A stretch of DNA of 56,276 nucleotides from an uncultured Candidatus Saccharibacteria bacterium (GCA_964446625.1 CAYUPH010000006.1:1-56276); one strand, 5' to 3'. Numbered from the stretch's first letter, positions 870-47,222 are shown. Notes: generated by a model not told the origin, from the letters alone. Numbers and translations are program-made.

Positions 870-907
870 GCCCAAAAACACCCCTTTGAAGAGGGGTGTT
901 TTTGGGC
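870..907 (-). terminator. 15-bp hairpin directly downstream of the stop at 948
   Basis: gcccaaaaacacccc / ggggtgtttttgggc with an 8-nt loop. T/A runs lie inside the arms, so it is bidirectional in form. Confidence 0.6.
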
Positions 908-947
908 TACTTTTGAAGCTGTTTTTTACTATTCTTCTACCCTTCCT

Positions 948-1379: not shown

Positions 1380-1381
1380 CT

Positions 1382-1792: not shown

Positions 1793-1798
1793 ATATAT

Positions 1799-6740: not shown

Positions 6741-7397
6741 TTACTTTTCAAAAAGTGAATAATTTATCCAAAAATTTATAAAATTTTCAAAAGATCCTTC
6801 TGAAAAATAATCAGGAAAAGAATAAGGATCTAGTATTAAAGATTCTTCTCTCTTTACACCTAAATAATCGTGATAACTTGAAAACATGTATGAATCAAGA
6901 TGTTTCCGGGTTACTTTAAAATCATCAATTCCCTCTGTCTTCCAATTAGGGCAAATAATCTTCACTGGGTTTAAGTGAATGTAGGCATATAAATACTTCA
7001 AATGCTCATCCCGTACACAATGTTCTGCTTTAAATCTACCTTGAAAAAGGGGTCCGGTACGATTGTACTTCTTATTAAAATACATCACATATGCTGTGGA
7101 AAGCTTGCTCATAAAAGAAGAAATTCCACCTTTTTTAATTTCTTTAAGTAGTAAATGGAAGTGATTCCCCATTAAACAATAAGCCCCAATCGCTACGATT
7201 GGGTCACACTTCTCTATCTCACTATATTGCAGATTTGCTACTTCTTTGAAATCTACTTTCTTGTCTCTATTACACACGTACAGCAGTTTTAAAAAGCGCT
7301 GTTTATCTTTATCGGAACGAAAGATTAACCTTTTTTCTACCCCTCTATTATAAACATGGTAGAATTCATCCTCGGAAAATACAATTTTCCTTTCCAT
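6741..7397 (-). CDS. Y1 (HUH) tyrosine transposase, IS200-like / REP-associated RayT-like
   Basis: EFYHVYNRG, the HUH motif in LMGNHFHLLL, GPLFQGRFK, and the catalytic-Tyr motif YAYIHLNPVK. The ATG at 7395-7397 is preferred over the GTG at 7427. Confidence 0.85.
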   Translation of the reverse strand: MERKIVFSEDEFYHVYNRGVEKRLIFRSDKDKQRFLKLLYVCNRDKKVDFKEVANLQYSEIEKCDPIVAIGAYCLMGNHFHLLLKEIKKGGISSFMSKLSTAYVMYFNKKYNRTGPLFQGRFKAEHCVRDEHLKYLYAYIHLNPVKIICPNWKTEGIDDFKVTRKHLDSYMFSSYHDYLGVKREESLILDPYSFPDYFSEGSFENFINFWINYSLFEK

Positions 7398-7437
7398 AAA
7401 AATATTATAATACAATACTATTTCCACTCCAAAGTTT

Positions 7438-29098: not shown

Positions 29099-29671
29099 TT
29101 ACAAGTGGCTTGCGGAGATACCCTTGTTGATGAGGGAAACAAGTTCTACCCTCTCTGCGCTAGGCAACTCTTTTTGGAGAGTACCACTTCCCATTTCTAA
29201 AACTGGTGTCGTGACAGCATTGATTGGAATGTACCCGAGCGCATAAAGAATTTGAAGCGAGAAAATAATTTCTGCATCTTTCTCTTTGTGTGGAGCAATA
29301 CCAGCGAGATTTTCAAACATACTTCGAATATATGCAAAAAGAAGATCGTTTTTTTCTTCTCCATGAACAAGACTTTGCAACAGTTTCGTAGACCTTAAAA
29401 AAACTTTGTACCCCGGTGTGCCGTATGGAAGCTCCTCTATTTCTTCTACTTCAAGAAGTCTCCACACTTCTCTTCCTTTTAGAAGCGTCACACTAAGAAG
29501 CGCGCCTTTCCGAAGCGCACCAGAGAGTTTTGCACCTTCTCGCCGTACACTTTTTGCAAGCACACGCAGAAACCCAAAACCTTCGCAAAAAAGTGAAAGC
29601 ATTTTATCATCCTCGCCTGTGTTTGCTTCAGCAATTAAAAAACAAAACGATGAGTACTTACTATGCGCCAT
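29099..29671 (-). CDS. recO: DNA repair protein RecO-like (short form)
   Basis: N-terminal OB-fold pattern GEDDKMLSLFCEGFGFLRVLAKSVRREGAKLSGALRKGALLSVTL. Overlaps ileS by 11 nt. No Zn-finger cysteines. Confidence 0.6.
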   Translation of the reverse strand: MAHSKYSSFCFLIAEANTGEDDKMLSLFCEGFGFLRVLAKSVRREGAKLSGALRKGALLSVTLLKGREVWRLLEVEEIEELPYGTPGYKVFLRSTKLLQSLVHGEEKNDLLFAYIRSMFENLAGIAPHKEKDAEIIFSLQILYALGYIPINAVTTPVLEMGSGTLQKELPSAERVELVSLINKGISASHL

Positions 29672-32600
29672 AAGGAGCTACTGAAACCGTAAACTCCATG
29701 TCACCAAGCTGAAGAGTTTTACCGTTTGTAGATGTGTACTTTGTTTCAAATGCACCAACAACTCGCGAGACGTCTTCCATAAGAGAAGCTTCGCTGAGGA
29801 GTTTTTTTCCTGCGTCGTTTGAAGAAAGGGTAAGTGTAATTTTTTGCTCTTGAATGAAACCTGCTTCTTTTCGCATATCCTGTATAAAACGGATAAGCTC
29901 CCTACCTGCTCCCTCAAGAATAAGTGACTCGGTTAAAGTAAAATCAAGTTCAATTTTTTCTTGGAGAGCACTTTCAACAATTACCTCTTTTACATTGATC
30001 TCATCTTTCAAAATCTCTTTTAATTCGTTTTCGAGATCTTTTCCAATTTTAATGCTTTGAAGAGGTTGTTTTACTTTTATATTTTCTTTATTTCTTTCCT
30101 GAAGAGCGAGAGACGCGAGACGTCTGACTTCTACCATGTCTGAAATAATAGTCTCGTTGTACTCCATGAGTTTCGGCCACTCTGCAAGGTGAACACTTTC
30201 CACCTTGTCTTCTGCTTCAATCTTTTGGTACAGATCCTCTGCGAAAAATGGAGCAAATGGAGCAAGTATCTTTGCAAAGTTTTGCAGAACAAATCCGAGT
30301 GTTGCCACAGCATCTTTGTTTCCTTCTCGAAGTGCTTCTCTTGATCGCCGTAGGTACCATGTCGACAAATCATCTATAAAGAGTCGCATTTCTCGCACAG
30401 GTTCGAGGATCTGGAACTTATCCATATGCTCGCTCACTTTCTTTTCAAGGAGAGACAGTCTACTTAAAATCCATACATCGAGAGAGCGTGTGCTTCGGTC
30501 ATGAATAGGAGCACTCTCCCCTTTGCTTTGCTCATAGAAAACATACACATTTGAAAGAATGTTAAAGAATTTTTTTCGTACCTCATCTACAGTTCGTTCG
30601 TCGAAGTTTTTACTTTCTCCTGGCTGATTGACACTATAAAGCCAAAGTCTAAGCGTATCGACTCCGTACTTATCAGCCATTTCCCACGGATCAATAACAT
30701 TTCCAAGAGACTTAGACATTTTCTTGCCATCTTTGTCGAGAAGGTGTCCAAGACAGATTACATTTTTATACGCCTTTCCTTTTCCAAGAAGGTTTGAGAC
30801 AGCGTGCAGAGTATAGAACCACCCACGCGTCTGATCAATCGCTTCGGAAATAAAATCTGCCGGAAAAGATTTTCCTGTATCAATTTCGTTTTTATTTTCA
30901 AAAGGATAATGATTTTGAGCAAACGGCATTGCACCAGAATCGAACCAAACATCCATCACTTCCTTTACCCTCTTTAGAGCTGTCCCTTTTTTTGAGACCA
31001 ATGTAATTTCATCGATATAAGGCTTGTGTAAATCAAGTTTAAAATCATCGTCATGCGGAAGAGGCACAAACGAAAGCGTTTCAAAACCGGCATACGGCAA
31101 ATAGTTTACCCCAGGAGTATAAATCACCTCAGTCGCTTTGTCGTCTGCTCCCGCTGCAACAACCTTAAGAAGTTTAGCTGGACCATCATGAGTCACAATG
31201 AGGATCGTTTTTCCTTCGTAAGTTTTTTCGAGATCATACAAAAACTCCCCCATTCTCTTTTTTGTTTCCCTGAGAGTTTCTCCACCTCCAACAGATTCGT
31301 TCAAGCGAAACTCAAAATTTGGAAAATACTTTGTAAAGTCACTTGCTTTAAAACCTGAAATATCTCCAAAGTCTTCTTCCCGGATGCGCTCGTCTATAAA
31401 TACTTTCTTATCAAGCGCTGCGGCAACAATCTCTGCAGTCTCCCGGGTCCTTTGGAGTGGCGAAGAAATAATAAGGTCAATATTTTCTGAAAGGAGTTTT
31501 GCTCCTGCGTTCTTTGCTTCTTCTTTTCCCTTTGCAGTGAGTGCATGTGCTTCTTCTGTATCGCTACTTAGTATTCCTTTTATATTATGCTCCGCCTCTG
31601 CGTGTCGCATAATTATGTATCTGTTTCCTGACTTTTTTGTAAAAGATTTTAGTTCTTCAATTGAAGACGGAATAAATCTTTCTTCACCATTTTCACTTTC
31701 CCACACAGGAAGAGGAGTTCCCCAGTATCTTTCTCTTGAGATTGCCCAATCTTTTATGTCGCGAAGCCATTCACCAAAACGCCCTTCTCGTATATACTCT
31801 GGCTCCCAACCAATTGTTTTGTTTTCTTCTACTAACGTGTCGCGAAGTGTCGAAACTCCAATGTACCAAGAATCTCTCGCAAAATAGATAAGAGGGGTTT
31901 TACATCTCCAGCAGTGCGGGTATGAGTGTTCGTATTTTTCTTTTTTAAAGAGGAGTCCCCTTCCTGCTAAATCTTTTATGACATCTACTGCAACTTCCTC
32001 GTCTTTTACAAAACGGTTTGCAAGAAATCCACACCACTCATAAAAAGTTCCGTCGTTTCTTACAGTGTGTTTCTTTGGTAAACCAATTTTGCTTCCGAGA
32101 ACAAAGTCATCCGCCCCATACATAACCGCGGTGTGCACAATTCCAGTTCCATCTGTTGTTGTCACAAAGTCAGCGGGGTAAACTTTAAAAGCTTTGGAAA
32201 TGTCCTCTCCATTTTTTGTAAGCTCATCTTTTAAGAATGGATAGAGGGGTTCGTAAGAAAGAGACAAGAGATTCTCACCTTTAAACTCTTTTCTTAATTC
32301 ATCTTTAGTAAATCCAAGTTTTTCAGAAAGTTCCAACGCAACGATGTGGTTCTTTCCTTCTTTTTCAAAAACACCATAGGAGATATTCTCTCCCACTGCA
32401 AGCGCGACGTTTCCTGGAAGTGTCCACGGTGTTGTTGTCCACGCGACTATATAACTTTCACTAGGAAGCTCGAGCGCTTCGGGATTTAAAATTTTAAAGC
32501 TGGCGTAAACAGATAAATCTTTTACATCTTCGTAGCCTTGAGCAAGCTCATGACTTGAAAGCGCAGTTCCACACCTTGGGCACCATGGCACAACTTTGTA

Positions 32601-33128
32601 ATCTTTGTAGAGCAGATTTTTATCATTGACAGTCTTTACAATATTCCATACTGATTCAATGTAGCTATTGTCGAATGTAAAGTATGCTTTTTCCAAATCT
32701 ACCCAATATCCAATTCTTTCTGTAAATTTTTTCCACAGATCAATGTACTGAAGAACGCTTGCTTTGCATTTCTTGTTAAACTCGGCAACACCGAACTCTT
32801 CAATTTCTTTTTTTGATTTGAGTCCAAGCTCTTTTTCTACTTGAAGCTCTACTGGAAGTCCGTGTGTATCCCACCCTGCTCGGCGCACCACTTTAAAGCC
32901 CTTCATTGTTTTGTATCGAGGAATCACATCTTTGAAGCTTCGAGCCTCTACGTGGTGAATTCCTGGCTTTCCGTTTGCAGTCGGTGGACCCTCAAAAAAC
33001 ACAAAATCACCCTGAGGTGCGTCCTTTTCCTCGGTTTTTTTAAATATGCCTTTCTCCTTCCAGAACCCAAGGACCCTTTCCTCCATGAGGGCTAAGTCAG
33101 ATTTTTGTGTTTCGTTGTTTTCGCTCAT
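29661..33128 (-). CDS. ileS: Isoleucine--tRNA ligase (type 2-like) carrying an inserted histidine-phosphatase domain
   Basis: PPTANGKPGIHHV (HIGH region), a CP1 editing domain (TTTPWTLPGN), WAISRERYWGTPLPVW, KMSKSLGN. The insertion is described separately. Confidence 0.95.
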   Translation of the reverse strand: MSENNETQKSDLALMEERVLGFWKEKGIFKKTEEKDAPQGDFVFFEGPPTANGKPGIHHVEARSFKDVIPRYKTMKGFKVVRRAGWDTHGLPVELQVEKELGLKSKKEIEEFGVAEFNKKCKASVLQYIDLWKKFTERIGYWVDLEKAYFTFDNSYIESVWNIVKTVNDKNLLYKDYKVVPWCPRCGTALSSHELAQGYEDVKDLSVYASFKILNPEALELPSESYIVAWTTTPWTLPGNVALAVGENISYGVFEKEGKNHIVALELSEKLGFTKDELRKEFKGENLLSLSYEPLYPFLKDELTKNGEDISKAFKVYPADFVTTTDGTGIVHTAVMYGADDFVLGSKIGLPKKHTVRNDGTFYEWCGFLANRFVKDEEVAVDVIKDLAGRGLLFKKEKYEHSYPHCWRCKTPLIYFARDSWYIGVSTLRDTLVEENKTIGWEPEYIREGRFGEWLRDIKDWAISRERYWGTPLPVWESENGEERFIPSSIEELKSFTKKSGNRYIIMRHAEAEHNIKGILSSDTEEAHALTAKGKEEAKNAGAKLLSENIDLIISSPLQRTRETAEIVAAALDKKVFIDERIREEDFGDISGFKASDFTKYFPNFEFRLNESVGGGETLRETKKRMGEFLYDLEKTYEGKTILIVTHDGPAKLLKVVAAGADDKATEVIYTPGVNYLPYAGFETLSFVPLPHDDDFKLDLHKPYIDEITLVSKKGTALKRVKEVMDVWFDSGAMPFAQNHYPFENKNEIDTGKSFPADFISEAIDQTRGWFYTLHAVSNLLGKGKAYKNVICLGHLLDKDGKKMSKSLGNVIDPWEMADKYGVDTLRLWLYSVNQPGESKNFDERTVDEVRKKFFNILSNVYVFYEQSKGESAPIHDRSTRSLDVWILSRLSLLEKKVSEHMDKFQILEPVREMRLFIDDLSTWYLRRSREALREGNKDAVATLGFVLQNFAKILAPFAPFFAEDLYQKIEAEDKVESVHLAEWPKLMEYNETIISDMVEVRRLASLALQERNKENIKVKQPLQSIKIGKDLENELKEILKDEINVKEVIVESALQEKIELDFTLTESLILEGAGRELIRFIQDMRKEAGFIQEQKITLTLSSNDAGKKLLSEASLMEDVSRVVGAFETKYTSTNGKTLQLGDMEFTVSVAPYGA
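31149..31622 (-). other. Histidine-phosphatase (PGAM/phosphoglycerate-mutase-like) domain inserted in IleRS (aa ~503-660)
   Basis: YIIMRHAEAEHN (RH catalytic pair, codons 31602-31607), SSPLQRTRETA, IREEDFGDISG and LIVTHDGP are in the canonical order. Confidence 0.8.
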
Positions 33129-34969: not shown

Positions 34970-36676
34970 TCACATCTCCTCCGGGATGTTAATTCCAAGG
35001 AGGAATAGTCCCTGCTCTAACACCCTTCCAAAAAGATGCGCTAGTGCAAGCCTGTGAGCTGTCTCTTTGTCATCTTTGTCTATAATTTTGTTGTGCGCGT
35101 AAAAGTTATTGAACTCACTTGTCAGACGAAGCAAATATTCCACCAAAAGATTTGGTGATTTTTCTTCAAATGCTCTGTGTGCCACAGCACCAAAACGACA
35201 CAGAAGCTTTTCTAAAAAGAGCACTTTCCTCTCTCCTCCTATGTATATTGGCACAATCCCCTCTGCTGCCGCTTTTTTTAAAAGAGAAGCTACTCGCACT
35301 CCTGCATACAGAAGGTATGGCCCCGAGTCACCGTCGAACGACATAGACTTTTCTCGATCAAAAACAATATCCTTTCCAGGCGATTGCCTTAGAATCGAAA
35401 ACTTTATTGCAGAAACCGCAATCTTTTCTGCCACTTCTTTTTTCTTTTCGGGGGTCATATCACGCTCTTCCATTTTCTTGAGCGCTTTTTCTTCCATCTC
35501 AAGGAGAAGTTCCTCACCTGTAATAATATTTCCTTTTCTCGAACTCATCTTCCCATCACTAAACCTAAGCATTCCATGGCCGATAAATTTTGTCTTCTTT
35601 GCTTCGTCTGGGTGAAGCAGGAACATTACCCGTCTGAGAACCTTAAAGTAGTCGCTAATCTCGTTAGCGGAAGTAATAACAGACAAATCAAACTTATGTC
35701 GCTCAGATTTTGTAAAAAAGAGTGCGAGTTCTTTTGCTTCATAGGTTGGAAGTCCCTCAGAGTTTAGAAAAACTCTTGTGTGAAGGCCAAAACGCTCACC
35801 CGGAAACACAACAGCACCCTCACTTTCTTCAAACAAAAACCCTAGGTTTTCTGTCACAATTTCCTTTGCCAAGTCCACAACTTCACTTTCAAAAATAAAC
35901 TCATCAAAACGTGTATCAAGTTTTTTGTAGATTTTGTCGAAGTAAAGAAGACTCCACTCTTTTCCCTTTTTGTAATACACCTCAAGATCCGCGTCACTTT
36001 TTTCAAAAAGCTTTTTATTTATCGCCCTAATTTCAGATTTTGCAGTTTCATCGTCTTCATACGCATGTGCTCCGACAACATACGCATCTCCCATAAACTT
36101 GATCTTGTCTGCAATACTGTCGTCGTCATGCGGAAAACCTGCGCGCGCTTTTTGCATTGCCCAAATTGTTTTTGCAACATGAAGCCCTATATCTCCTTGG
36201 TAACAAATTCTTTTTATGTGAGCACCTTGAAATTCGCAAAGCCGGCTTAGTGTCTCACCAACCGCATTTGCCATGAGGTGCCCAATATGAAAAGCCTTAA
36301 AAGGATTTGGGTCAGTGTACTCAAAAAGAGCAGTCTGCCCTTCCATACTATGTCCGCGTCCAGGAATCTTTTCTTTGTAGAGCTCTGCACACTCTGCTCT
36401 AAAATACTCGTCTTTTATATAAAAATTTAAGAAACCAGGTCCGGCTATTTCTACTTTTTCCAGTTCGGGAATAGCAGAAAAATCTAAGTTGTCTTTAATT
36501 TTCTCCGCAAATTCGTTTGCACCCATTCCAAACGCTCCGCAGTGTTTTAGAGCAACATTTGAAGTAAAGTCTCCATTTTTTATATTTTCTGGGTGTTCAA
36601 TATGTATTTCGGCCCCAGGAAGACTGAGCTTTTCTAAGGTAGAACCGATTACAGATTTTAGTTTACTGACTATCAT
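34970..36676 (-). CDS. argS: Arginine--tRNA ligase
   Basis: DPNPFKAFHIGHLMANAVGE (HIGH), MSSRKGN (a degenerate KMSK) and a C-terminal DALR-type anticodon-binding region. Confidence 0.93.
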   Translation of the reverse strand: MIVSKLKSVIGSTLEKLSLPGAEIHIEHPENIKNGDFTSNVALKHCGAFGMGANEFAEKIKDNLDFSAIPELEKVEIAGPGFLNFYIKDEYFRAECAELYKEKIPGRGHSMEGQTALFEYTDPNPFKAFHIGHLMANAVGETLSRLCEFQGAHIKRICYQGDIGLHVAKTIWAMQKARAGFPHDDDSIADKIKFMGDAYVVGAHAYEDDETAKSEIRAINKKLFEKSDADLEVYYKKGKEWSLLYFDKIYKKLDTRFDEFIFESEVVDLAKEIVTENLGFLFEESEGAVVFPGERFGLHTRVFLNSEGLPTYEAKELALFFTKSERHKFDLSVITSANEISDYFKVLRRVMFLLHPDEAKKTKFIGHGMLRFSDGKMSSRKGNIITGEELLLEMEEKALKKMEERDMTPEKKKEVAEKIAVSAIKFSILRQSPGKDIVFDREKSMSFDGDSGPYLLYAGVRVASLLKKAAAEGIVPIYIGGERKVLFLEKLLCRFGAVAHRAFEEKSPNLLVEYLLRLTSEFNNFYAHNKIIDKDDKETAHRLALAHLFGRVLEQGLFLLGINIPEEM

Positions 36677-37322
36677 TTTCTATATATGACCAAATCTTCT
36701 CATGAATTGTCTCGGGTGGCAAAACATTTGCCCCCTCCATACAATCCACTCTTTTCCAAAAGGCGTCTTTTTGAAGCATGAACTTTCCTGCTTCTTTTGA
36801 GTTTTTGAGGTATTCAAAATCCGAATCTGCGGCATCCTTAATTCCCTCTCGTTTTGAAATGAGTTCAATCGATGCTTCAAGCGTCATGTCCAAATAGAAA
36901 ACCACACTTGGCTTAAGTATGTGAAGCACATCGTATTCCATTTTTGAGAGCCATACAAGAAAATCTTCTCTCTCTTTTTCTGTGCGCAGTTTTCCTCCCT
37001 GGTGAATTTGGTTTGAAGTCACATACCTATCAAGTACCACCGTTTTCCCTTCTGCGAGCCACGTTTTTATTTTATCCATCGTTTCAAAGCGATCGCACGC
37101 ATACAAAACTGAAGCAATCTTTGGATCGGTTTTTATAAAATCCCCGTGCTTTCCATCCAGGCACTCACGAATGAGGGCTCCAAAAAGATTATCCTCGTAG
37201 CGAGGGAATCGCAAAGACTCCGAAGGAACCCCCTCTTTTTTAAGGCGCTGAAGAAGCAAATCTGTTTGAGTAGTCTTCCCTGACCCGTCACTTCCTTCGA
37301 TAACAATTAAATTTGCTTTCAT
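36663..37322 (-). CDS. tmk: Thymidylate (dTMP) kinase
   Basis: LIVIEGSDGSGKTTQ (P-loop) and DRYVTSNQIHQ. Overlaps argS by 14 nt. Confidence 0.92.
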   Translation of the reverse strand: MKANLIVIEGSDGSGKTTQTDLLLQRLKKEGVPSESLRFPRYEDNLFGALIRECLDGKHGDFIKTDPKIASVLYACDRFETMDKIKTWLAEGKTVVLDRYVTSNQIHQGGKLRTEKEREDFLVWLSKMEYDVLHILKPSVVFYLDMTLEASIELISKREGIKDAADSDFEYLKNSKEAGKFMLQKDAFWKRVDCMEGANVLPPETIHEKIWSYIENDSQ

Positions 37323-37326
37323 TTTT

Positions 37327-38475
37327 CTACTTGTTCTTTATCCGAGGTGGCCTCTTAATTCCTAAAGCGTACTTAGTTTCTCCTGCATCACTTCCCCTTG
37401 GTTTTAAAGTATTAACAAACATCGGTCGAGAAAGTTTGTCATAGACCTCTTTTGATACTGTAGATCGAGGGAGAGGTGAAGGTGTGAAAAAGGCATGCGT
37501 AAATCTCTTGAAAAAAGATGGCTTCTTATGTTTTACATTTTCATACACTCTTTCTACTGCATCCCTTAGACCAGCAGTATTTGTAACAGATTGAATTAGA
37601 TACTCACCTTTCCCATTTGCAGTATCAAAAATTCCTTCGATCATATCGAGCAAATCATTCCTTCTAAAAAGTTGCTTACTTCCTTGAAGTCCGTGCTCAA
37701 GTGCAGGCGCATACAGTATTACAGCTTCAAGATCTTGGCGGGTCTTCGCCATTTGAAGCCTATACTTAAAATCATTCCATTCCTCTTCTGTTGAACCCTC
37801 TCTCTTTTCAATTTCTTCTGCACTCACAGTGTCTTTATACAAAGAACCGTCTGACATTTCATACTCTCGAGTTGCAGTTGCAATGTCTTCTTGTAGCACT
37901 ATTGCTTTATTTTCTATCTCCAAAAGCTTTGTCACCTTTTCCCTCAACCCCTCAGCTATTGGAAGTGCATCAATACCATAGCGGTGACTAAACACGCCGC
38001 GGACAAGTTCTTGCACTTTTTCTTTTGAGTATGTTCCCGAATCAGAAGCCAAACCATTAAAACTTTCTGACTCAATAAATGCAAACAAATCTTTTTTGTT
38101 TGCAATTTTTGTAAATAAACCATCTTCTTTCTCTGGTATACCTTCTGGTTTTCCCATTTGCGCAAGAAAAGCTTCCCTATCTGCCTCAACTCTTTTGCAC
38201 CACTCCACTTTCGCACGAATTTTTTTTGCAGCCACACTATCCGTCGGCAAAGCTTCAATACCCTTTACCCTGTTATAGACTGACGCTAAATATTCCTCTG
38301 CCGCCTTCTGGTCTGCTTCGGTTTTTATCTCATCAAATAGCGTTAGTAAAAACCATGCATCAATAGAAGCATTTCCCATTCCATCTCTCATTTTATATAC
38401 CACAATAAAATTTTCCGACAACCCCTCGAGTGGGTCTTTTTTCTCTGGTAAAGGTGTACTAAAAATTTCTCCCAT
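37327..38475 (-). CDS. Hypothetical 382-aa protein with three internal repeats and a basic C-terminus
   Basis: The recurring module appears as VYNRVKGIEALPTDSVAAKKIRAKV, VFSHRYGIDALPIAEGLREKV and IFDTANGKGEYLIQSVTNTAGLRDAV. It is packed between glyA and tmk (gaps of 1 and 4 nt). Confidence 0.65.
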   Translation of the reverse strand: MGEIFSTPLPEKKDPLEGLSENFIVVYKMRDGMGNASIDAWFLLTLFDEIKTEADQKAAEEYLASVYNRVKGIEALPTDSVAAKKIRAKVEWCKRVEADREAFLAQMGKPEGIPEKEDGLFTKIANKKDLFAFIESESFNGLASDSGTYSKEKVQELVRGVFSHRYGIDALPIAEGLREKVTKLLEIENKAIVLQEDIATATREYEMSDGSLYKDTVSAEEIEKREGSTEEEWNDFKYRLQMAKTRQDLEAVILYAPALEHGLQGSKQLFRRNDLLDMIEGIFDTANGKGEYLIQSVTNTAGLRDAVERVYENVKHKKPSFFKRFTHAFFTPSPLPRSTVSKEVYDKLSRPMFVNTLKPRGSDAGETKYALGIKRPPRIKNK

Positions 38476-38476
38476 A

Positions 38477-39649
38477 CTATCTTGAAATAATATCTATAAT
38501 TCTCTCTGCGATTTTTTGGAAATCTTTTTCTTTCTTTCCGCGAGTTGTTTCTGCGGCAGTTCCAAACCTAATTCCAGAAGGATCAAATGGTGAGCGAGTT
38601 TCTCCAGGAATTGTGTTTACGTTTGCAATGATTCCTGCTTTTTCAAGACGGTCAACCACTTCTTTTGCAGGAACTCCTTTTCCACCCTGCCACACATCAA
38701 CCAAAATCATGTGACTGTCAGTTCCTCCTGAAACAACTCGTATACCACCTTTTTGTAGTGCCTTCGAAAATGCTTTTGCGTTTTTGATAATCTGCTTTGC
38801 GTACTTTTTGAAGTCTGCCCTGCCCGCCTCTTCGAGTGCAACTGCAATTCCTGCAATCTGACTTTCGTGGGGACCACCTTGAAGTCCTGGAAAAACTGCT
38901 TTATCAATTTTTTTGTTAAGTTCTCTGTCGTCTCTTCGAGAAAAAATCATTGCACCTCTTGGTCCTCGCAATGTCTTGTGTGTAGTTGTTGTTACTACAT
39001 CTACAAAAGGAAATGGACTGGGATACGCTTTCCCAGCAACAAGACCTGCTAAGTGCGACATATCAGCCATAAGAATTGCGCCTGTTGCGTCTGCAATTTC
39101 TCTAAACTTTTTCCAATCAACCAATCGCGGGTACGCAGTAAACCCGCAGACAATGAGCGCTGGTTTTTCCTTTAGCGCTTTTTTCTTTAGTTCCTCATAA
39201 TCGAGAACTTCAGTTTTTGAATCAACTTCAAACGGTACACTTTCCCAAAACTTTCCTGTAATTGAAACTTTCTGTCCATGTGAAAGATGTCCTCCTGAAG
39301 AAAGTGTCATACCCATAATTTTTTCCCCTTTTGGAACAAGCCCCAGGTAAACCGCCAAATTTGCGTTTGCACCAGAGAGCGGTTGTACATTGACTGCCCA
39401 CTCTTTTTCTTTGACTCCAAACGCTTTGAGCGCCCGATTTTGACAGAGTGTCTCAAGCTCATCGACAAACACATTTCCTTTGTAGTAGCGCGCTCCTGGG
39501 TAACCTTCTGCGTATTTATTATCAAACACCGAACCTAGTGCTTGAAGCACCTCCTTTGAACAGTAGTTCTCTGATGCAATGAGGTTAATAACTTTCTTTT
39601 GTCTCGCCTCTTCTTTTTTTATAAGCTCAAAAATTTTTTTATCGTTCAT
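38477..39649 (-). CDS. glyA: Serine hydroxymethyltransferase
   Basis: LIASENY, GYPGARYY, VTTTTHKTLRGPRGA (PLP-binding Lys). Confidence 0.96.
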   Translation of the reverse strand: MNDKKIFELIKKEEARQKKVINLIASENYCSKEVLQALGSVFDNKYAEGYPGARYYKGNVFVDELETLCQNRALKAFGVKEKEWAVNVQPLSGANANLAVYLGLVPKGEKIMGMTLSSGGHLSHGQKVSITGKFWESVPFEVDSKTEVLDYEELKKKALKEKPALIVCGFTAYPRLVDWKKFREIADATGAILMADMSHLAGLVAGKAYPSPFPFVDVVTTTTHKTLRGPRGAMIFSRRDDRELNKKIDKAVFPGLQGGPHESQIAGIAVALEEAGRADFKKYAKQIIKNAKAFSKALQKGGIRVVSGGTDSHMILVDVWQGGKGVPAKEVVDRLEKAGIIANVNTIPGETRSPFDPSGIRFGTAAETTRGKKEKDFQKIAERIIDIISR

Positions 39650-39660
39650 AAGATTAGATT

Positions 39661-39685
39661 TAAGAATTAAGATTTAGGAATTAAG
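39661..39685. repeat. IR-family arm (left arm flanking the four-helix-bundle gene)
   Basis: taagaattaagatttaggaattaag is 24/25 identical to the reverse complement of 44484-44508. Confidence 0.85.
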
Positions 39686-40050
39686 AATGATTTTGTTTTA
39701 CTAATTAGTCCTTGTAAAAGTTTGTGCGTTTGCTTAATTTGTTCTTCTATTTTTTGAGAATCAGCTACACCCATTAATTTTACATCTCTTGCTATGAAAA
39801 GCTGGTTGGTTAATTCAATTAGTGATCCTTGTGCAATGTAATTAAATTGAAGCTTTTCTTTATAACCTTGTCTTCCGAACCCTTCAGCAATGTTTGAGGT
39901 TATCGAAACCGCTGACCGATTCATCTGACTTGCGAGACCAAAAAGTTCTTCCTTCGGAAACTTTTTTGTCATTTGATAAATCAATATCACTAACTTGTGT
40001 CCTTCTTGCCACGCAATTAGATCAGTGAATTGTTTTATCTTTTTTTCCAT
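39667..40050 (-). CDS. Four-helix-bundle protein (23S rRNA intervening-sequence protein family, TIGR02436-like)
   Basis: FTDLIAWQEGHKLVILIYQMTKKFPKEELFGLASQMNRSAVSITSNIAEGFGRQ...QGSLIELTNQL. The ATG at 40048-40050 is preferred over the longer track ORF. Confidence 0.85.
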   Translation of the reverse strand: MEKKIKQFTDLIAWQEGHKLVILIYQMTKKFPKEELFGLASQMNRSAVSITSNIAEGFGRQGYKEKLQFNYIAQGSLIELTNQLFIARDVKLMGVADSQKIEEQIKQTHKLLQGLISKTKSFLIPKS

Positions 40051-40051
40051 T

Positions 40052-40082
40052 CTTAAATCATAATTCTTAAAACTTAATTCTT
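40052..40082. repeat. IR-family arm (right arm flanking the four-helix-bundle gene)
   Basis: The reverse complement aagaattaagttttaagaatta matches the left-arm core aagaattaagatttaggaatta at 20 of 22 positions. Confidence 0.75.
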
Positions 40083-40583
40083 GTATATTCGCTCGCTTCC
40101 TTCTAAAAGATATACATTTATTATACCAGCAGCAATCATTGAATCCCAACATGGCTTACAGCACCACCAGTGGCCATGAAGGTAGAGGTCAGCACCCTTT
40201 ACCGCTTCGGCGCCATGTTTTGAGACCGCTTCCCTTATAGCTGATCTTTCGGCGTGATTCTTGTTTGTGACACAACCAGGGCAAAGCCAGTATTTTTGCC
40301 CACTTTTTACTTTAAAAAACTTGCGGACACAGACTCCGGCCGCATGTAGCTTTACAAACGGTTTGTATGAAAAAACTGAATGATTTGCTCCCCTGCCTAT
40401 TATTTTCCCGTCTTTTACCACCACAGCACCTGTTGGGTGGTTTAAATCGGTACTCATTTCACGCCAGGCTTTTTCCGCTTCAATCATAAAGGGGTTTTCC
40501 TGGGGAACATAAAGTATTGACCTCCCCTCTGGCATGTATGGATATATAATTTTTGTTGAATCCTCTCCCATGAGTAGTATCAT
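40074..40583 (-). CDS. dCMP deaminase (ComEB/CDA zinc-deaminase fold)
   Basis: TGAVVVKDGKIIGRGAN, HAERSAI (H-A-E zinc motif), CKPCWDSM (PCxxC-like). Alternative start at MPEGR (40535). Confidence 0.85.
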   Translation of the reverse strand: MILLMGEDSTKIIYPYMPEGRSILYVPQENPFMIEAEKAWREMSTDLNHPTGAVVVKDGKIIGRGANHSVFSYKPFVKLHAAGVCVRKFFKVKSGQKYWLCPGCVTNKNHAERSAIREAVSKHGAEAVKGADLYLHGHWWCCKPCWDSMIAAGIINVYLLEGSERIYKN

Positions 40584-40590
40584 ATATGGT

Positions 40591-41460
40591 ATGACGAAGT
40601 TTGACCAGATATACCAAGATATTCTAAAACGGATTCTAAAAGAAGGGATTGAGGAAACTTCTTCACTTCAAAAAGTGAAAACAAAATCCCTCCCTGGTGT
40701 TCACTTTCAAATTGATTTGGAAAAAGACGGCTTCCCTCTCCTCACAATTCGAAAGATTCCTGTAAAAATGTTTACAGCGGAACAAATTTGGTTTCTCTCT
40801 GGAGCACGAAAGCCCGACGATTTTCTCCGGGACTATACAAAAGTATGGGACGCATTTACTAACCCAAACGATGTTGTCACCGTTGCTTACGGGTTTAGAT
40901 GGCGAAAATATTTTGGACGAGATCAAATACAGTCTCTTGTTGAACTCCTTCAAAAAGAGCCTCTTAGTAGACACGGTGTTGTTATTGCCTGGGATCCAGG
41001 AAGCGACGGGCTTTCACTCATTAAAAAAGCAAACGTTCCTTGTCCCTTTTCTTTTGTAGTAAACATAATCGGCGGACGACTCAATATGCATAACATAGTA
41101 CGCTCAAACGACATGTATCTTGGCGCACCTGCTGACATAGCAGGCTTTGCACTCCTTCAGACAATTCTGGCGCAAAAGTTAAAAGTTAAAGTCGGAGTGT
41201 ATAGTCACTCGATTTCAAACGCGCATATTTACGAGAACCAGTTTTCTGCCGCAAAAGAATTAGTTGCTCGAAAAAACAATCACAAAAAAATTACCATCTC
41301 TCTTCCAAAGAATGCTTTTGACCGGGCGGAAAAGAAAGACAAAAAACTTCTTGAGGAAATAGTAAAGGAGTTTGAAAAGCAGTACAAACCTATGGAGAAC
41401 ATAAAGGGGGTGAAAATTGTGACATGGAATGACCAAATAAAAAAACAAAAAAGAAAATAA
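40591..41460 (+). CDS. Divergent thymidylate-synthase (ThyA) family enzyme with Asp at the pyrimidine-specificity position; substrate uncertain
   Basis: TAEQIWFLSG, AYGFRWR, SRHGVVIAW, catalytic VPCPF (Cys codon 41041-41043), VRSNDMYLGAPADIAGF (Asp codon 41134-41136) and SNAHIYENQ. Start set at MTKFDQIY; the track ORF starts at 40534. Confidence 0.8.
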   Translation: MTKFDQIYQDILKRILKEGIEETSSLQKVKTKSLPGVHFQIDLEKDGFPLLTIRKIPVKMFTAEQIWFLSGARKPDDFLRDYTKVWDAFTNPNDVVTVAYGFRWRKYFGRDQIQSLVELLQKEPLSRHGVVIAWDPGSDGLSLIKKANVPCPFSFVVNIIGGRLNMHNIVRSNDMYLGAPADIAGFALLQTILAQKLKVKVGVYSHSISNAHIYENQFSAAKELVARKNNHKKITISLPKNAFDRAEKKDKKLLEEIVKEFEKQYKPMENIKGVKIVTWNDQIKKQKRK

Positions 41461-41461
41461 T

Positions 41462-42130
41462 ATGGCAATCCTAACAAAAACAAAAATATTAGAGCGAGTA
41501 ACAAAAGGCGAAATTGTATTTAAGCCAAACCTTGATGAGTTTCAAATCCAAGCCCACGCAATAGATATGCGCCTTGGGTATACATTTCTCATACCAAAGC
41601 AGTGGCACCTTACGGATAAAGGAAGAGAGGCGCTTCGAATCGACCATCTAGACAAGAATCGAAAAGACTATTTTGAAGTGATTGAACTCGAAGAGAGACA
41701 GTTTTTTGAGCTTCTCCCTGGAGAGTATGTTCTCGCATCTACTCTAGAGAGTGTCAAAGTTCCAGACGACCTAATGGCGGTTCTCTACCCTCGTAGTTCA
41801 ACGAATCGAAAAGGGCTTTCGGTAGATTTAACAGGAATTGTAGACTCAGGATACGAAGGACAACTTGTTATTCCAATTCGAAACAACACTAACTCTCAGG
41901 TGGTGAAACTCTACCCTGGGGAGAGGTTTTGTCAGATTGTTTTTGAGGCGCTCGATGAAGCTGTAATTGCAGAGAAATCTCGATACCACCAAAAAGATAT
42001 TGTAGAGGGTTTCATTATGACAAAGGAGAACAAACAGAAAAGAGACTCTGAAGAGATAAGCTATGTATCAGAAGGAAGAATCCGAGAATTAAAAAAAGAG
42101 AAGTCTGCACACCATGGAGATAAAGTTTAA
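41462..42130 (+). CDS. dcd: dCTP deaminase family protein (Dcd), with a charged C-terminal extension
   Basis: AIDMRLG, YPRSSTNRKGLSV, IVDSGYEGQLVIPIRNN, GERFCQIVF. Confidence 0.85.
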   Translation: MAILTKTKILERVTKGEIVFKPNLDEFQIQAHAIDMRLGYTFLIPKQWHLTDKGREALRIDHLDKNRKDYFEVIELEERQFFELLPGEYVLASTLESVKVPDDLMAVLYPRSSTNRKGLSVDLTGIVDSGYEGQLVIPIRNNTNSQVVKLYPGERFCQIVFEALDEAVIAEKSRYHQKDIVEGFIMTKENKQKRDSEEISYVSEGRIRELKKEKSAHHGDKV

Positions 42131-42542
42131 AAAACTTGACCCTCGAGCGACAGCTCCTCAAAAAGGTTACCCAGACGATGCAGCCTTCGATCTCTTTGCT
42201 CTCAACGAGACTGTGGTTGAAGCAAAAAGTTCTGCTTGGATAAAAACAGGAATTGCTTTCGAGATTCCCGAAGGGTATGCGGGGCTCATTTGGGACAAAA
42301 GTAGTGTTGCGCACAAGTGGAACATTACAAAAATCGGTGGAGTTTTTGATGCTGGCTACAGAGGGGACATCACTATCGGCCTCCACAACCTCTCAAACGA
42401 AAGTCACACTTTTAAATCGGGAGATAAAATTGCTCAAATTATCTTCGCTCCCACTCCCCTTTTTGAACTAAAAGAGTCCGATACACTTTCTGAATCAGTT
42501 CGAGGTGAAAAGAGGTTTGGGAGTAGTGGACTTCGAATTTAA
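42114..42542 (+). CDS. dut: dUTP diphosphatase (trimeric dUTPase)
   Basis: DAAFDLFA, DKSSVAHKWNI, GVFDAGYRGDITIGLHNLS, KIAQIIF, RGEKRFGSSG. Overlaps dcd by 17 nt. Confidence 0.9.
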   Translation: MEIKFKKLDPRATAPQKGYPDDAAFDLFALNETVVEAKSSAWIKTGIAFEIPEGYAGLIWDKSSVAHKWNITKIGGVFDAGYRGDITIGLHNLSNESHTFKSGDKIAQIIFAPTPLFELKESDTLSESVRGEKRFGSSGLRI

Positions 42543-42569
42543 AAGATAATTTTTTGATATAATACACAC

Positions 42570-43073
42570 ATGAAAGTTTTTATAATCGCAGCACAAACAA
42601 TAGACGGGTTCATTGCAAAAGACAGTAGCCACCCTGCTTTTTGGACTAGCAAAGAAGACAAAAAAAGATTTGTTGAGCTTACTTCACACGCAGGAGTTTG
42701 CGTCATGGGACACGCAACATTCAAAACCCTTCCTCGTCCTCTTAAAGAAAGACTAAACATTGTTTACACACGAAGCGCGGAAACATTTGAAGGCGCGGAG
42801 ACAACATCCGATGATCCAATAACACTTATACAAAAACTAGAAGACCGTGGTTTCAAGGAAGTTGCAATCTGTGGAGGCTCAACAATTTACAGTCTTTTTC
42901 TAAAAGCAGGAGTCGTTGATACTATCTATCTTACAATCGAGCCTATTGTTTTTGGTGAAGGAGTTTCTCTTTTTAACACTCCGTTTAATACCCAATTCGA
43001 ACTTGTAAGTCATGAAAAAACAGAAGGTGGTGCACTTCTTCTCGAGTATCGAGTAAAAAATAAATTGATATAA
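42570..43073 (+). CDS. Dihydrofolate-reductase-fold protein (DHFR / RibD C-terminal family)
   Basis: MKVFIIAAQTIDGFIA, VMGHATFKTLPRPLKERLNIVYTR, AICGGSTIYSLFL. Confidence 0.75.
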   Translation: MKVFIIAAQTIDGFIAKDSSHPAFWTSKEDKKRFVELTSHAGVCVMGHATFKTLPRPLKERLNIVYTRSAETFEGAETTSDDPITLIQKLEDRGFKEVAICGGSTIYSLFLKAGVVDTIYLTIEPIVFGEGVSLFNTPFNTQFELVSHEKTEGGALLLEYRVKNKLI

Positions 43074-43085
43074 AAAAACGCCAGC

Positions 43086-43751
43086 TTACTTTGCATGGCG
43101 ATTGAAAAAATAGGCAACCTCCCTCGCAAGATTAATTTCGAAAGTTGAGGCAAGCGAAATTAACCTTTCAAGAAAATCGCCCATCTCTTCCACGATCTTC
43201 TTTTCCTCGGAGTTTCGTAAGAACTCAATCGTCCACTCATCACCTTCCTCGGAAAGATGGAGTGCGCGGATAAGTTTTGCTTCGAAACTCCTATCGTTAG
43301 GGTAAACCCTCCAGTCCGACGCCTGGAATGCACCAAACGACTGCTTTAGCTTGGGTGGATGGTTTCCCTTCATCCGAAAGAGCGGCCTAGGAACACCCGG
43401 ATTTGTGCATGTGCAAGGACAATCTCCACAATACACACACTTCCCAGGGTACCCCTTCGTTATTACTTCCTGCACACAAATCTTTCGACTCGAGGCAAAA
43501 AACACAAGCATCAAAAACGCTTGAACAATTCGCTCAACAGGAATCTCTTCCTGCTTACGAACTTGCCTAACGATTTTTTTCTTGTGCTCTATTAGCTCTG
43601 CGAGCCACTTGTCTCGCTCAAGAGCTTTCTCAGGAAATATAAGATCAGGAAATTTTTCTTTTCTACTTTCAGTAGCCTCTTGGAGCTGCCGAAAGGTATA
43701 CGCCCCATTTGTTGGGAGTTTCATGTTTTCTGCCCTAAAACTACTCCCCAC
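43086..43751 (-). CDS. Tandem MazG-like (all-alpha NTP pyrophosphohydrolase-like) protein with a central Cys cluster
   Basis: Two helical halves carry acidic motifs: LAELIEHKK...EEIPVERIVQAFLMLVFFA and LSEEGDEWTIEF...EEMGDFLERLISLA. They are separated by GKCVYCGDCPCTCTNPG. The likely start is MKLPTNG (43724). Confidence 0.5.
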   Translation of the reverse strand: MGSSFRAENMKLPTNGAYTFRQLQEATESRKEKFPDLIFPEKALERDKWLAELIEHKKKIVRQVRKQEEIPVERIVQAFLMLVFFASSRKICVQEVITKGYPGKCVYCGDCPCTCTNPGVPRPLFRMKGNHPPKLKQSFGAFQASDWRVYPNDRSFEAKLIRALHLSEEGDEWTIEFLRNSEEKKIVEEMGDFLERLISLASTFEINLAREVAYFFNRHAK

Positions 43752-46319: not shown

Positions 46320-47222
46320 CTACATTCGGCCGCTTTTTTGGTCTTTGTATGCTTTAAAAAGGTTCTCAAAAAGAGAGGCGACCGTCATGGGGCCAATACC
46401 ACCTGGAACTGGAGAGATTTTACTTACCACTTTGCTAACTGTCGCAAAATCGACATCCCCAACTAATTTTATTTTTGGATTTTCCTCTAATTCTTTTTTT
46501 CCTTTTTCAGCGTTTGTTCCTACATCAACAACAACTTGGTTTTTTGAAAAATACTTTTTATCAAAAAACTTTGCCTTTCCAACAGAGACAATGACTACAT
46601 CGGCTGTTTTTGTGAGTTTCTCAAGGTCTTCTGTTTTACTATGCGCAACTGTCACAGTTGCATTCTCTTTGAGAAGGAGCATTGCAACAGGTTTTCCTAC
46701 AAGAAGCGAGCGCCCAATGACAACCACCTTTTTTCCTGAAAGAGCGACTTTGTAATGCTTAAGAAGAGTAATAATACCTCGCGCTGTTGCAGGAATAAGC
46801 CCCGCAGGAACGGTTCTTGGATCACTTCCGCCAAATGCGCTTTCGTAGAGGAGTCCTGCGTTTCTTGAGTGTAGTCCATCAACATCTTTTCGTGGGTCAA
46901 TTTCTTCTATAACAGCAAAGCGGTCAACGTGTTTTGGGAGTGGAAGTTGAACAATAATTCCGTGTACAGAAAAATCTAGGTTAAGGTCACGGATTTCTGC
47001 AATGATTTCTTTTTGTGTCGCTTCTTCGGGAAGAGTGATTCGCCTTACTTCTGCGCCAACTTGTTTTCCAAAAGACACCTTTCGCTCAATATACGCACTC
47101 GACTCTTTCTTGTCCCCCACCTGAATAATCGCAAGGGTTGGCGCACCAAGCTCCTTCGCTTCCTGCGTTAGTTTTTTTGCAATCTTTTGTGAAACTAATT
47201 TTCCGTCGAGAATTTCTGCCAT
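46320..47222 (-). CDS. folD: Bifunctional 5,10-methylene-THF dehydrogenase/cyclohydrolase
   Basis: ILDGKLVSQKI, LAIIQVGD, HGIIVQLPLP, DVDG, VVVIGRSLLVGKP, PVPGGIGPMTVA. TGCTAAAGT lies 6 nt upstream of the ATG. Confidence 0.95.
   Translation of the reverse strand: MAEILDGKLVSQKIAKKLTQEAKELGAPTLAIIQVGDKKESSAYIERKVSFGKQVGAEVRRITLPEEATQKEIIAEIRDLNLDFSVHGIIVQLPLPKHVDRFAVIEEIDPRKDVDGLHSRNAGLLYESAFGGSDPRTVPAGLIPATARGIITLLKHYKVALSGKKVVVIGRSLLVGKPVAMLLLKENATVTVAHSKTEDLEKLTKTADVVIVSVGKAKFFDKKYFSKNQVVVDVGTNAEKGKKELEENPKIKLVGDVDFATVSKVVSKISPVPGGIGPMTVASLFENLFKAYKDQKSGRM

Follow-up and report, generated by a model that had tools for sequence, protein, structure and literature searches.

A conserved Paceibacterota gene cluster that may make thymidylate by methylating dCMP before deaminating it

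To our knowledge, all cells are taken to make thymidine monophosphate (dTMP) from deoxyuridine monophosphate (dUMP), with ThyA or ThyX as the enzyme. A gene cluster in an uncultured bacterium raises the question of whether a whole lineage might take another path. The cluster lies at positions 36663-43751 of CAYUPH010000006.1:1-56276 (assembly GCA_964446625.1), the 56,276-nucleotide stretch of DNA that was analysed and that we call the window. It consists of tightly packed genes in two back-to-back operons on a Patescibacteria (Parcubacteria/Paceibacterota) chromosome, a lineage assignment taken from the source names of the nearest homologs. An earlier note had described the block as a phage-style toolkit for folate-dependent modification of pyrimidine deoxynucleotides, centred on a ThyA-family enzyme. 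It had offered three interpretations: a streamlined dTMP-synthesis regulon, a pathway for a modified deoxycytidylate, or a noncanonical route to dTMP. The gene order, the coordinates and most of the family assignments stand up to profile matches, and the evidence favours the last of these interpretations over the other two. Specifically, we propose that the lineage would make dTMP by methylating deoxycytidine monophosphate (dCMP) and then deaminating the product (dCTP to dCMP to 5-methyl-dCMP to dTMP to dTDP), a reading to which we give about an even chance of being right.

The argument begins with the ThyA homolog. It passes the TIGR03284 thymidylate synthase (TS) model with 125.3 bits against a cutoff of 108.35, matches TS structures in the PDB down to 1.6e-32, and has Cys146, Arg166, Ser167, Asp169, Glu58 and Tyr94 intact (E. 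coli numbering). Cys146, Arg166/Ser167, Glu58 and Tyr94 are also kept in all 120 of its nearest database homologs. The exceptions among the active-site residues are positions 143, 147 and 177. In the window protein, Asp182 (nt 41134-41136) stands in place of N177, Pro152 in place of H147 and Asn148 in place of L143, around the retained Cys151 (C146). As a result, the protein reads 'LGAPADIAGF' and 'NVPCPFS' where solved TSs read 'LGVPFNIASY' and 'LPPCHCL'. The numbering follows E. coli reference sequences, and the key residues are independently visible in the PDB alignments. Asp177 occurs in 120/120 of the nearest homologs and Pro147 in 117 of them. The full Asn-Cys-Pro-Asp (N-C-P-D) signature is present in every one of the 35 related Patescibacteria loci considered below, and 45 Clostridia loci have Asn177.

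Positions 177 and 147 best separate the TS homologs of cytosine-modified contigs from those of unmodified contigs, and an Asn177Asp substitution turns TS from a dUMP into a dCMP methylase (PMC8670742). Asp at position 177 marks the cytosine-using enzymes T4 dCMP hydroxymethylase (CH), MilA and BcmA, and Asn marks the uracil-using members of the family (PMC5175136). The homolog from phage Xp12 and five of seven deaminase-linked metavirome homologs make 5-methyl-dCMP, and in the DNA of both Xp12 and PaMx74 cytosine is replaced by 5-methylcytosine (5mC) (10.1101/2024.12.05.627091). By its residues, the ThyA homolog is a proposed dCMP C5-methyltransferase, which would convert dCMP and 5,10-methylene-tetrahydrofolate (CH2-THF) to 5-methyl-dCMP and dihydrofolate (DHF).

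The same protein could instead be an ordinary dUMP-dependent TS despite Asp177, with the deaminase, Dut and the DCD-family protein of the block feeding dUMP and with dihydrofolate reductase (DHFR), GlyA and FolD recycling folate. The TIGR03284 score, the name thymidylate synthase that the sources give to the homologs and the intact catalytic residues all speak for this explanation, and papers on the candidate phyla radiation (CPR) treat thyA as canonical. Linkage of thyA to a DHFR gene is canonical too, and Dut, a CDA-fold deaminase and a dUTPase-like DCD protein surround ThyA here. Against it, Asp177 goes with a cytosine substrate both in mutagenesis and in every characterised natural enzyme, and the three-site signature together with two indels groups the ThyA homolog with dCMP methylases rather than with canonical TS. 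We regard an ordinary TS as rather unlikely, although it is the most serious competitor to the dCMP route.

The grouping with dCMP methylases comes from several searches. An exhaustive search with the ThyA homolog covered 1.84 billion cluster representatives (50% identity), of which the best 150 were analysed. Among these 150, Asp177 was found in 117 and the pair Pro147/Asp177 in 90; the cluster names of the representatives were uninformative. In a rough neighbor-joining tree, without support values and rooted on T4 gp42, 26 His147/Asn177 sequences formed a separate clade with the E. coli enzyme, and the window ThyA fell in the Asp177 clade. A tblastn search of a phage collection gave its best matches (1e-40 to 1e-45) to PaMx74, PaMx28, AAT-1, Donnerlittchen, DoCa5 and the Rhodobacter Rc phages, that is, to Pamexvirus and relatives. 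The td genes of T4-like and KVP40-like phages among the matches listed reached 1e-17 to 1e-26. The enzymes of PaMx74, Donnerlittchen and RcSimone have N143/P147/D177 and share two indels with the window ThyA, a deletion that follows 'YGxRWR' and an insertion ahead of the catalytic Cys.

The genes around these phage enzymes are also familiar. The nearest relatives of the ThyA homolog outside Patescibacteria are phage-borne and lie either in phage replication modules or in MazG/ThyA(Asp177)/deaminase/DHFR cassettes, where the annotated genes encode a MazG-like pyrophosphohydrolase, ThyA, dCMP deaminase and DHFR. When ten proteins of the block were compared with three such cassettes by local BLAST, ThyA matched at 1e-49 to 1e-55 and DHFR at 3e-13 to 2e-6 (29% identity, E 2.9e-13, for the DHFR of RcSimone); in the same comparison the deaminase match was weak (0.007) and the MazG-like open reading frame (ORF) of the block had no match. 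The likeness to a phage toolkit that the earlier note had described is one of descent and not of analogy only, the nearest non-Patescibacteria ThyA relatives being phage enzymes. Judged by these relationships, the Paceibacterota ThyA clade is embedded in a largely phage-borne radiation.

The earlier note had taken phage T4 as its model (gp56, gp42, Cd, Frd and gp1). The T4 set does resemble the block in removing or converting dCTP, in the folate-dependent C5 modification of dCMP, in rephosphorylation, and in the Asp at the specificity position. It differs in that gp42 has Thr at position 147, does not have the common indels and belongs to neither the canonical nor the Asp177 clade. Moreover, T4 gene 42 lies between b-gt and imm, and no promiscuous gp1-type kinase is found in the Paceibacterota block. 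gp42 is a hydroxymethylase that releases THF, not DHF, and the T4 genes are scattered rather than gathered in one cassette. The DHFR of the block argues for reductive methylation. We therefore rejected T4 as the closest system in favour of Xp12/PaMx74, which is the proper comparator.

The block and the Xp12/PaMx74 module share the Asn143/Pro147/Asp177 clade, the indels and 31-34% ThyA identity, and in both a deaminase, a DHFR and a nucleotide pyrophosphatase are linked to ThyA. In the phages, the deaminated 5mC nucleotide pool is reported to supply thymidine nucleotides without a second TS (10.1101/2024.12.05.627091), and this supply by deamination of 5-methyl-dC is the logic that we propose here. 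The two systems differ in four respects. The Paceibacterota module is chromosomal, has a lineage-wide core and is joined to glyA, tmk, dut and folD. Its presumed pyrophosphatase is a DCD-fold protein that has lost a glutamate, whereas the phage one is MazG. Its deaminase belongs to a distinct subfamily with an extra Cys/His site, and its ThyA has His at Arg127'. Finally, the phage module belongs to a genome whose DNA carries 5mC, whereas the Paceibacterota one lies on a housekeeping chromosome.

Metagenomic contigs extend the association. On contig L130, a dCMP-deaminase domain is naturally fused to an Asp177 ThyA (P0135), and the next gene encodes a DCD-family protein with Pro at the catalytic Glu site ('KLIFPIQN'). 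This 58-kb contig (Logan SRR28892722) is probably a phage; the fusion lies at L130:8001-9973, with a class I ribonucleotide reductase and a VanY/PG-binding gene in its neighbourhood. A second contig, L136, contains a ThyA 48% identical to that of the window (P0123) in a phage-like module with a deaminase of the window subfamily ('YGHYHVCDEC'), and a DCD-like protein with 'TLVLPL' lies about 2.7 kb from the Asp177 ThyA and deaminase. Two unrelated phage-like contigs thus combine an Asp177 ThyA with a deaminase and a Pro-variant DCD. In another representative, P0203, a PRA-PH (MazG-like) domain is fused to an Asp177 ThyA. A viral contig, IMGVR_UViG_3300020045_010740, encodes at 900-3100 a Dut, a deaminase 37% identical to that of the window, an N-C-P-D ThyA 49% identical and a 108-aa MazG, with lysis-like and tail-like genes beside these nucleotide genes. 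The contig may come from a phage that infects Patescibacteria and has cytosine-modified DNA. Other sister representatives adjoin PolA, SSB, DnaB, YqaJ or terminase genes and have a deaminase, a dNMP-kinase-like or an NTP-pyrophosphatase gene next to thy. Asp177 ThyA, deaminase and nucleotide pyrophosphatase behave as one functional unit.

Given these phage relatives, the block might be a recent phage-derived island or a prophage remnant with a DNA-modification cassette. The phage-borne nearest relatives and the IMG/VR contig with its 49%-identical ThyA beside a 37%-identical deaminase would agree with this. To see how the block is placed in related genomes, as the earlier note had suggested, we scanned one genome per GTDB species and obtained 35 Patescibacteria loci with a ThyA homolog 57-83% identical to that of the window. 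The core layout recurs in all 35, in a common frame of argS, (tmk), (dut), glyA and deaminase, then divergently ThyA, the DCD-like gene and (DHFR), followed by rplK-nusG and folD. The deaminase adjoins thy divergently in all 33 loci in which the upstream DNA is present, and the DCD-like gene directly follows thy in 34 of 35. A DHFR gene beside thy or the DCD-like gene, glyA upstream of the deaminase, and folD a few kilobases past rplK-nusG are each found in most of the loci. tmk lies within the cluster in part of them, and the position of dut varies.

This clustering exceeds chance. The conserved module consists of deaminase, ThyA, the DCD-like protein and DHFR, and glyA, tmk, dut and folD accompany it at close range. 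The module is old and vertically kept, and it is not an island. In the same scan, 45 canonical Asn177 loci of Clostridia had thyA-DHFR only, with no deaminase or DCD-like gene detected, although divergent deaminases may have escaped those queries. The GC content of the block is flat at 0.39-0.42, similar to that of its flanks, and a domain scan of ORFs of at least 100 aa across the 56-kb window found no phage structural, terminase or integrase domains, just as the earlier note had stated for gene content and composition. With the same argS to rplK-nusG position in 35 genomes diverged to 57-83% identity, no GC shift and no such phage genes among the ORFs scanned, we rejected the prophage or island explanation as extremely unlikely. 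Outside the conserved module lie the 382-aa ORF, the gene for a four-helix bundle and the MazG-like ORF, which are taken up below.

The second unusual protein of the core is the one that the earlier note had called dcd. It belongs to the DCD family by TIGR02274, and its best PDB match is 4xjc (1e-15). However, the catalytic glutamate (E138 in E. coli, in the motif 'TLE') is Pro138 (nt 41873-41875), and Pro occupies this site in 35/35 orthologs. The protein reads 'GQLVIPIRN' where the solved DCDs that align over the motif have 'TLE', with the exception of 9ln0 (Met). Glu is kept in E. coli Dcd, in the M. tuberculosis and B. halodurans structures, and in three of three viral DCD-family homologs checked (SRV ORF168, PhiF1 ORF65 and HGTV-1 gp107). 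Asp128, Tyr and the RSS...R motif are retained. Because the catalytic Glu is replaced in all orthologs, the protein cannot be a canonical dCTP deaminase. The family name thus stands, and the function that goes with it, draining of dCTP by deamination, does not. It also follows from the loss of Glu that the classical dCTP to dUTP feed into dUMP would be absent. Such a loss in a linked DCD homolog, recurring with an Asp177 ThyA, seems to be previously undescribed.

What, then, does this protein do? Its motif III-like segment 'VDSGYEGQLVI' resembles 'IDSDYQGQLMI' of E. coli Dut. Motif V is absent, the C-terminus is of DCD type, and NF002598 gives 48.5 bits against a cutoff of 130. We propose that it may be a (d)NTP pyrophosphatase acting on dCTP, which we favour, or on dUTP. 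Since a canonical Dut with all its motifs is encoded in the same operon, another substrate (dCTP or 5-methyl-dCTP) would be more economical than a second dUTPase. This bears on the ordinary-TS explanation as well, in which two dUTPases per operon would be redundant in a minimal genome. Compared with the canonical thyA-folA cycle, in which dcd/dut or a dCMP deaminase supplies dUMP, the block shares ThyA, DHFR, serine hydroxymethyltransferase, FolD, Tmk, Dut, the DCD fold, a CDA-fold deaminase and the thyA-DHFR linkage, and it differs in the cytosine-type residues of ThyA and in a DCD homolog without the deaminase Glu. A scan of viral contigs with the DCD-like protein returned one weak match only. 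As a separate observation, PDB entries 9ln0, 9ln3 and 8y1w are proteins of 155-156 aa labelled 'dCTP deaminase', and the aligned 9ln0/9ln3 sequence reads 'LTLML', with Met at the Glu site. They may represent a further natural case of a DCD-fold enzyme without the Glu, or else an engineered protein, and in either case would be a useful structural comparator.

The third core component is the divergently transcribed deaminase. H110, E112, C142 and C145 are invariant and form the HAE and PCxxC zinc site, and there is an extra invariant site (H80/C85/C101/C104) together with a 'GHWWCC' motif. In a profile search of the PDB, the dCMP deaminases 4p9c and 2hvv came first (about 1e-8), with RibD and TadA close behind. 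An AlphaFold model (mean predicted local distance difference test score, pLDDT, 84.4) had S. mutans dCMP deaminase as its top Foldseek match (9.6e-6). In both fold and profile rankings, dCMP deaminases lead by small margins, followed by RibD, guanine deaminase and TadA. No dCMP deaminase was among the matches when the PDB was searched with the single sequence, and the TIGR02571 model scores 25 bits against a cutoff of 219. The protein belongs to a distinct subfamily of CDA-fold zinc deaminases, confined to Patescibacteria and some phage-like contigs.

Published work on phage systems suggests what such a deaminase might do. dCMP-deaminase genes lie within 3 kb of the TS gene in 70% of modified contigs and in 6% of unmodified ones, PRA-PH pyrophosphohydrolase domains co-localise with them, and linked deaminases prefer 5mC, among them mSCD-B5, which is selective for 5-methyl-dCTP (10.1101/2024.12.05.627091). 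The difference between 6% and 70% is a further point against the ordinary-TS explanation. By analogy with these systems, we propose that the deaminase of the block could convert 5-methyl-dCMP to dTMP. A related logic exists in human cells, where DCTPP1 and DCTD take 5-methyl-dCTP to 5-methyl-dCMP and then to dTMP, as salvage or clean-up beside canonical TS. In the human route, too, an NTP pyrophosphatase followed by a dCMP-family deaminase makes thymidylate from 5-methyl-dC nucleotides; in Paceibacterota, however, the route would be the main biosynthetic one, with the ThyA homolog supplying the 5-methyl group de novo.

These pieces can be assembled into a pathway. The DCD-fold pyrophosphatase without the deaminase Glu would convert dCTP to dCMP, and the MazG-like ORF may help in some strains. 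The ThyA homolog would then catalyse reductive methylation, turning dCMP and 5,10-methylene-THF into 5-methyl-dCMP and dihydrofolate. The divergent zinc deaminase would convert 5-methyl-dCMP to dTMP, and Tmk would phosphorylate dTMP to dTDP. DHFR, GlyA and FolD would restore the folate cofactor, with GlyA regenerating 5,10-methylene-THF, and Dut would clear dUTP. In this sequence, methylation would come first and deamination second, so that dUMP would be bypassed. The gene identities, active-site residues, clade membership, synteny and co-occurrence that underlie the pathway are direct observations on the genomes. From them we infer all of the substrates, the order of the steps and the standing of the module as the cell's only dTMP route.

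Several observations weigh against this proposal. Arg127' is His or Gln in the Patescibacteria clade (His in the window), unlike in canonical TS and in the phage enzymes. The DCD-like motif III is nearly identical to that of E. coli Dut, and the protein is possibly just a second dUTPase. Dut and the deaminase could between them yield dUMP, and if the DCD homolog were one more dUTPase, all the genes around ThyA would supply dUMP, as in the classical scheme. The deaminase shares only about 25% identity with those of the phage cassettes and does not stand clearly nearer to dCMP deaminases than to RibD or TadA. The phage deaminase mSCD-B5 works on triphosphates, not on 5mdCMP (10.1101/2024.12.05.627091). 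The roughness of the tree lowers the weight of clade membership.

The triphosphate preference of mSCD-B5 would also fit a different possibility, namely that these bacteria have a 5mC genome like that of Xp12. Here dCTP would be destroyed, 5-methyl-dCMP would be carried up to 5-methyl-dCTP and incorporated so that most or all cytosines were 5mC, and part of the pool would be deaminated to thymidine nucleotides. The ThyA clade and the set of pyrophosphatase, deaminase and DHFR match phages with full 5mC replacement, in 34 of 35 loci the neighbour of thy is a putative pyrophosphatase without the deaminase Glu, and the characterised linked deaminase acts at the triphosphate level. On the other side, the sole kinase encoded here is an ordinary Tmk whose motifs are of the thymine type, whereas several sister phage modules have a dNMP-kinase-like or deoxynucleoside-kinase-like (dNK-like) gene beside thy. 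No T:G-repair/EndoIII-like gene was found in the window, unlike in Donnerlittchen, where one lies beside the MazG gene; such a gene is also reported in Xp12 and AXL1. Moreover, a search of the open-access literature returned no report of 5mC-substituted Patescibacteria DNA, and the GC content of about 40% shows no obvious decay. We consider a 5mC genome of this kind clearly unlikely. The same judgement, put a shade more strongly, applies to the specific claim that the Paceibacterota, a large group of ultra-small bacteria, replace most or all of their chromosomal cytosine with nucleotide-level 5mC. A dCMP methylase of phage type would act there together with a DCD-fold pyrophosphatase that destroys dCTP and a deaminase selective for 5mC. 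This we think decidedly improbable.

The cytosine-type ThyA could also make a different product, by hydroxymethylating dCMP in the way of T4 gp42 or by using CMP like MilA and BcmA, so as to supply a modified base or a metabolite. Asp177 is common to T4 CH, MilA and BcmA, and Arg127' has become His or Gln at a position that in MilA helps to set the preference for ribo over deoxy substrates (PMC5175136). Yet the equivalent of Ser167 is of the deoxy type by the criterion of the same work (PMC5175136), and the DHFR in the operon of most genomes implies release of DHF. With a DHFR in the operon, the ThyA homolog would therefore release DHF, which means methylation and not hydroxymethylation. In addition, T4 gp42 is not placed within the Asp177 clade in the gp42-rooted tree, a LOG-fused MilA-like protein (P0244) has Leu143 and sits elsewhere in the tree, and the block has no glycosyltransferase or N-glycosidase. 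A product of this kind is very unlikely, and the dCMP-methylation route is the reading that we carry forward.

The remaining genes of the block are collected with the core in Table 1. Tmk keeps the base-binding YxxxR motif, with its Tyr and Arg, at aa 73 and a DRY motif at aa 97, both of the thymine type known from TMPK. In Dut, the translation shows motif III and a C-terminal motif V, 'RGEKRFGSSG'. folD lies 2.57 kb beyond the block, as had been noted.

Table 1. Genes and control region of the thymidylate block, and folD, in the window
Feature	Coordinates	Strand	Matches and remarks
tmk, dTMP kinase	36663..37322	-	PF02223 E 1e-23; TIGR00041 90.4 bits, cutoff 83.25
382-aa ORF, no assigned family	37327..38475	-	no Pfam, NCBIfam or PHROG match
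glyA, serine hydroxymethyltransferase	38477..39649	-	PF00464 E 1.6e-158; NF000586 510 bits, cutoff 335
23S rRNA-IVP-type (Avd-like) four-helix-bundle gene, 127 aa	39667..40050 (true start)	-	PF05635 E 5.7e-35; TIGR02436 115.7 bits
zinc-dependent CDA-fold deaminase	40074..40583	-	PF00383 55.8 bits; PF14437
divergent control region	40556..40607	.	overlapping promoter-like hexamers on both strands; very short
ThyA-family enzyme, 289 aa	40591..41460	+	PF00303 E 3.4e-51; true start 40591
DCD-fold protein, 222 aa	41462..42130	+	PF22769 E 3.1e-35; TIGR02274 118.9 bits, cutoff 92.8
dut, canonical trimeric dUTPase	42114..42542	+	PF00692 E 1.3e-25; TIGR00576 112.4 bits, cutoff 102.55
dihydrofolate reductase	42570..43073	+	PF00186 E 2.8e-18, 66.6 bits; RibD_C 5.6e-18; phrog_316 E 4.3e-21
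212-aa MazG-like ORF	43086..43724	-	Cys4 knuckle and one EExxE...ExxD motif
folD, methylene-THF dehydrogenase/cyclohydrolase	46320..47222	-	PF02882 E 2e-56; PF00763 E 6.5e-33

Three genes of the block stand apart from the conserved module. The 382-aa ORF, which had been described as a repeat protein, yielded no internal repeat when aligned with itself by BLAST. Neither the 35 related loci nor the libraries searched contain a homolog, and the ORF is a passenger in the operon, specific to the strain. None of the 35 related loci has the four-helix-bundle gene that separates glyA from the deaminase; it looks like a mobile-type gene that was recently inserted, in this lineage only, into a conserved operon.

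The third gene, at the end of the block, had been read as a tandem MazG-like protein and is better taken as the 212-aa ORF at 43086-43724. It has a single motif, so that one MazG-like half stands, with weak support, and the tandem does not. Seven members of its family share invariant C96/C99/C104/C106, H156, E159/E160/E163 and E180/D183; Pfam MazG is matched by four of the seven (best 4.4e-5) and PRA-PH by two. The window protein reaches MazG at E 0.068 (13.9 bits, cutoff 22), and the longer frame at 43086-43751 had no match in Pfam, NCBIfam, PHROGs or the PDB and one database homolog only. Alignment to phage MazG by hhalign gave a probability of 0.1, the structural model has low confidence (pLDDT 54.6), and Foldseek returned no match below E = 1. 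The tandem reading was dropped on these grounds: no library match, a negative hhalign result, a poor AlphaFold model and no significant Foldseek match. The ORF occurs in only three to four close relatives at E < 1e-7. From its residues, it is a possible accessory NTP pyrophosphohydrolase with one MazG-like half, outside the conserved core.

The organization of the block is very compact. Intergenic gaps run from -17 to +27 bp, and the longest ORFs of the divergent deaminase and ThyA homolog are 7 bp apart. Between them, sigma-70-like hexamers match at 9/12 positions at 40556-40583 on the plus strand and 40607-40579 on the minus strand; these are weak consensus matches only. Coding sequences overlap by 14 nt at argS/tmk (36663-36676) and by 17 nt at the DCD-like gene and dut (42114-42130), and both overlaps are consistent with translational coupling in very compact operons.

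Around the block, the window encodes FtsK, RecA, EF-P, SSB, S6, TatD, MetRS, IleRS, ArgRS, L11, NusG, FolD, photolyase and L19. The IleRS ORF (29661-33128, minus strand, 1155 aa) is unusual in that its catalytic domain is interrupted midway, at aa 505-662, by a His_Phos_1 (phosphoglycerate-mutase-like) domain (E 6e-32), either inserted or fused. The ORF at 6741-7427 on the minus strand contains an IS200-like Y1 transposase domain (E 2.5e-7). Also on that strand are two large probable surface proteins, one of 1011 aa (2202-5237) with a beta-helix and an LCAT/PGAP1-like lipase domain and one of 449 aa (5234-6583) with PKD and lamin-tail domains. These may be host-interaction factors of an episymbiont.

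The enzymology proposed here is known from phages, and the route in which dCMP is methylated and then deaminated has so far been reported only for phages with 5mC DNA. We did not find a cellular, lineage-wide housekeeping use of it in the open-access literature; nor did searches of that literature on Parcubacteria/Patescibacteria thymidylate synthase, 5-methylcytosine, dCMP methylase and 5-methyl-dCMP return a prior description of this feature of the lineage. The phage relatives leave two directions of transfer to consider, from such hosts to phages or from phages to the hosts. If the proposal is correct, a whole bacterial lineage would depend on phage-type chemistry for its housekeeping supply of dTMP. 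Cells would in that case have a third way of solving the thymidylate problem, one that avoids dUMP. At least about 2,000 database entries named 'thymidylate synthase' would then be mislabelled, together with the linked Glu-less 'dCTP deaminase' genes, and metabolic models of the CPR and views of its folate dependence would need revision. Cellular 5mC-selective deaminases and a new DCD-fold pyrophosphatase would be of practical interest. And should the improbable case of a 5mC-substituted genome hold after all, Paceibacterota would be the first cellular organisms with wholesale pre-replicative base substitution.

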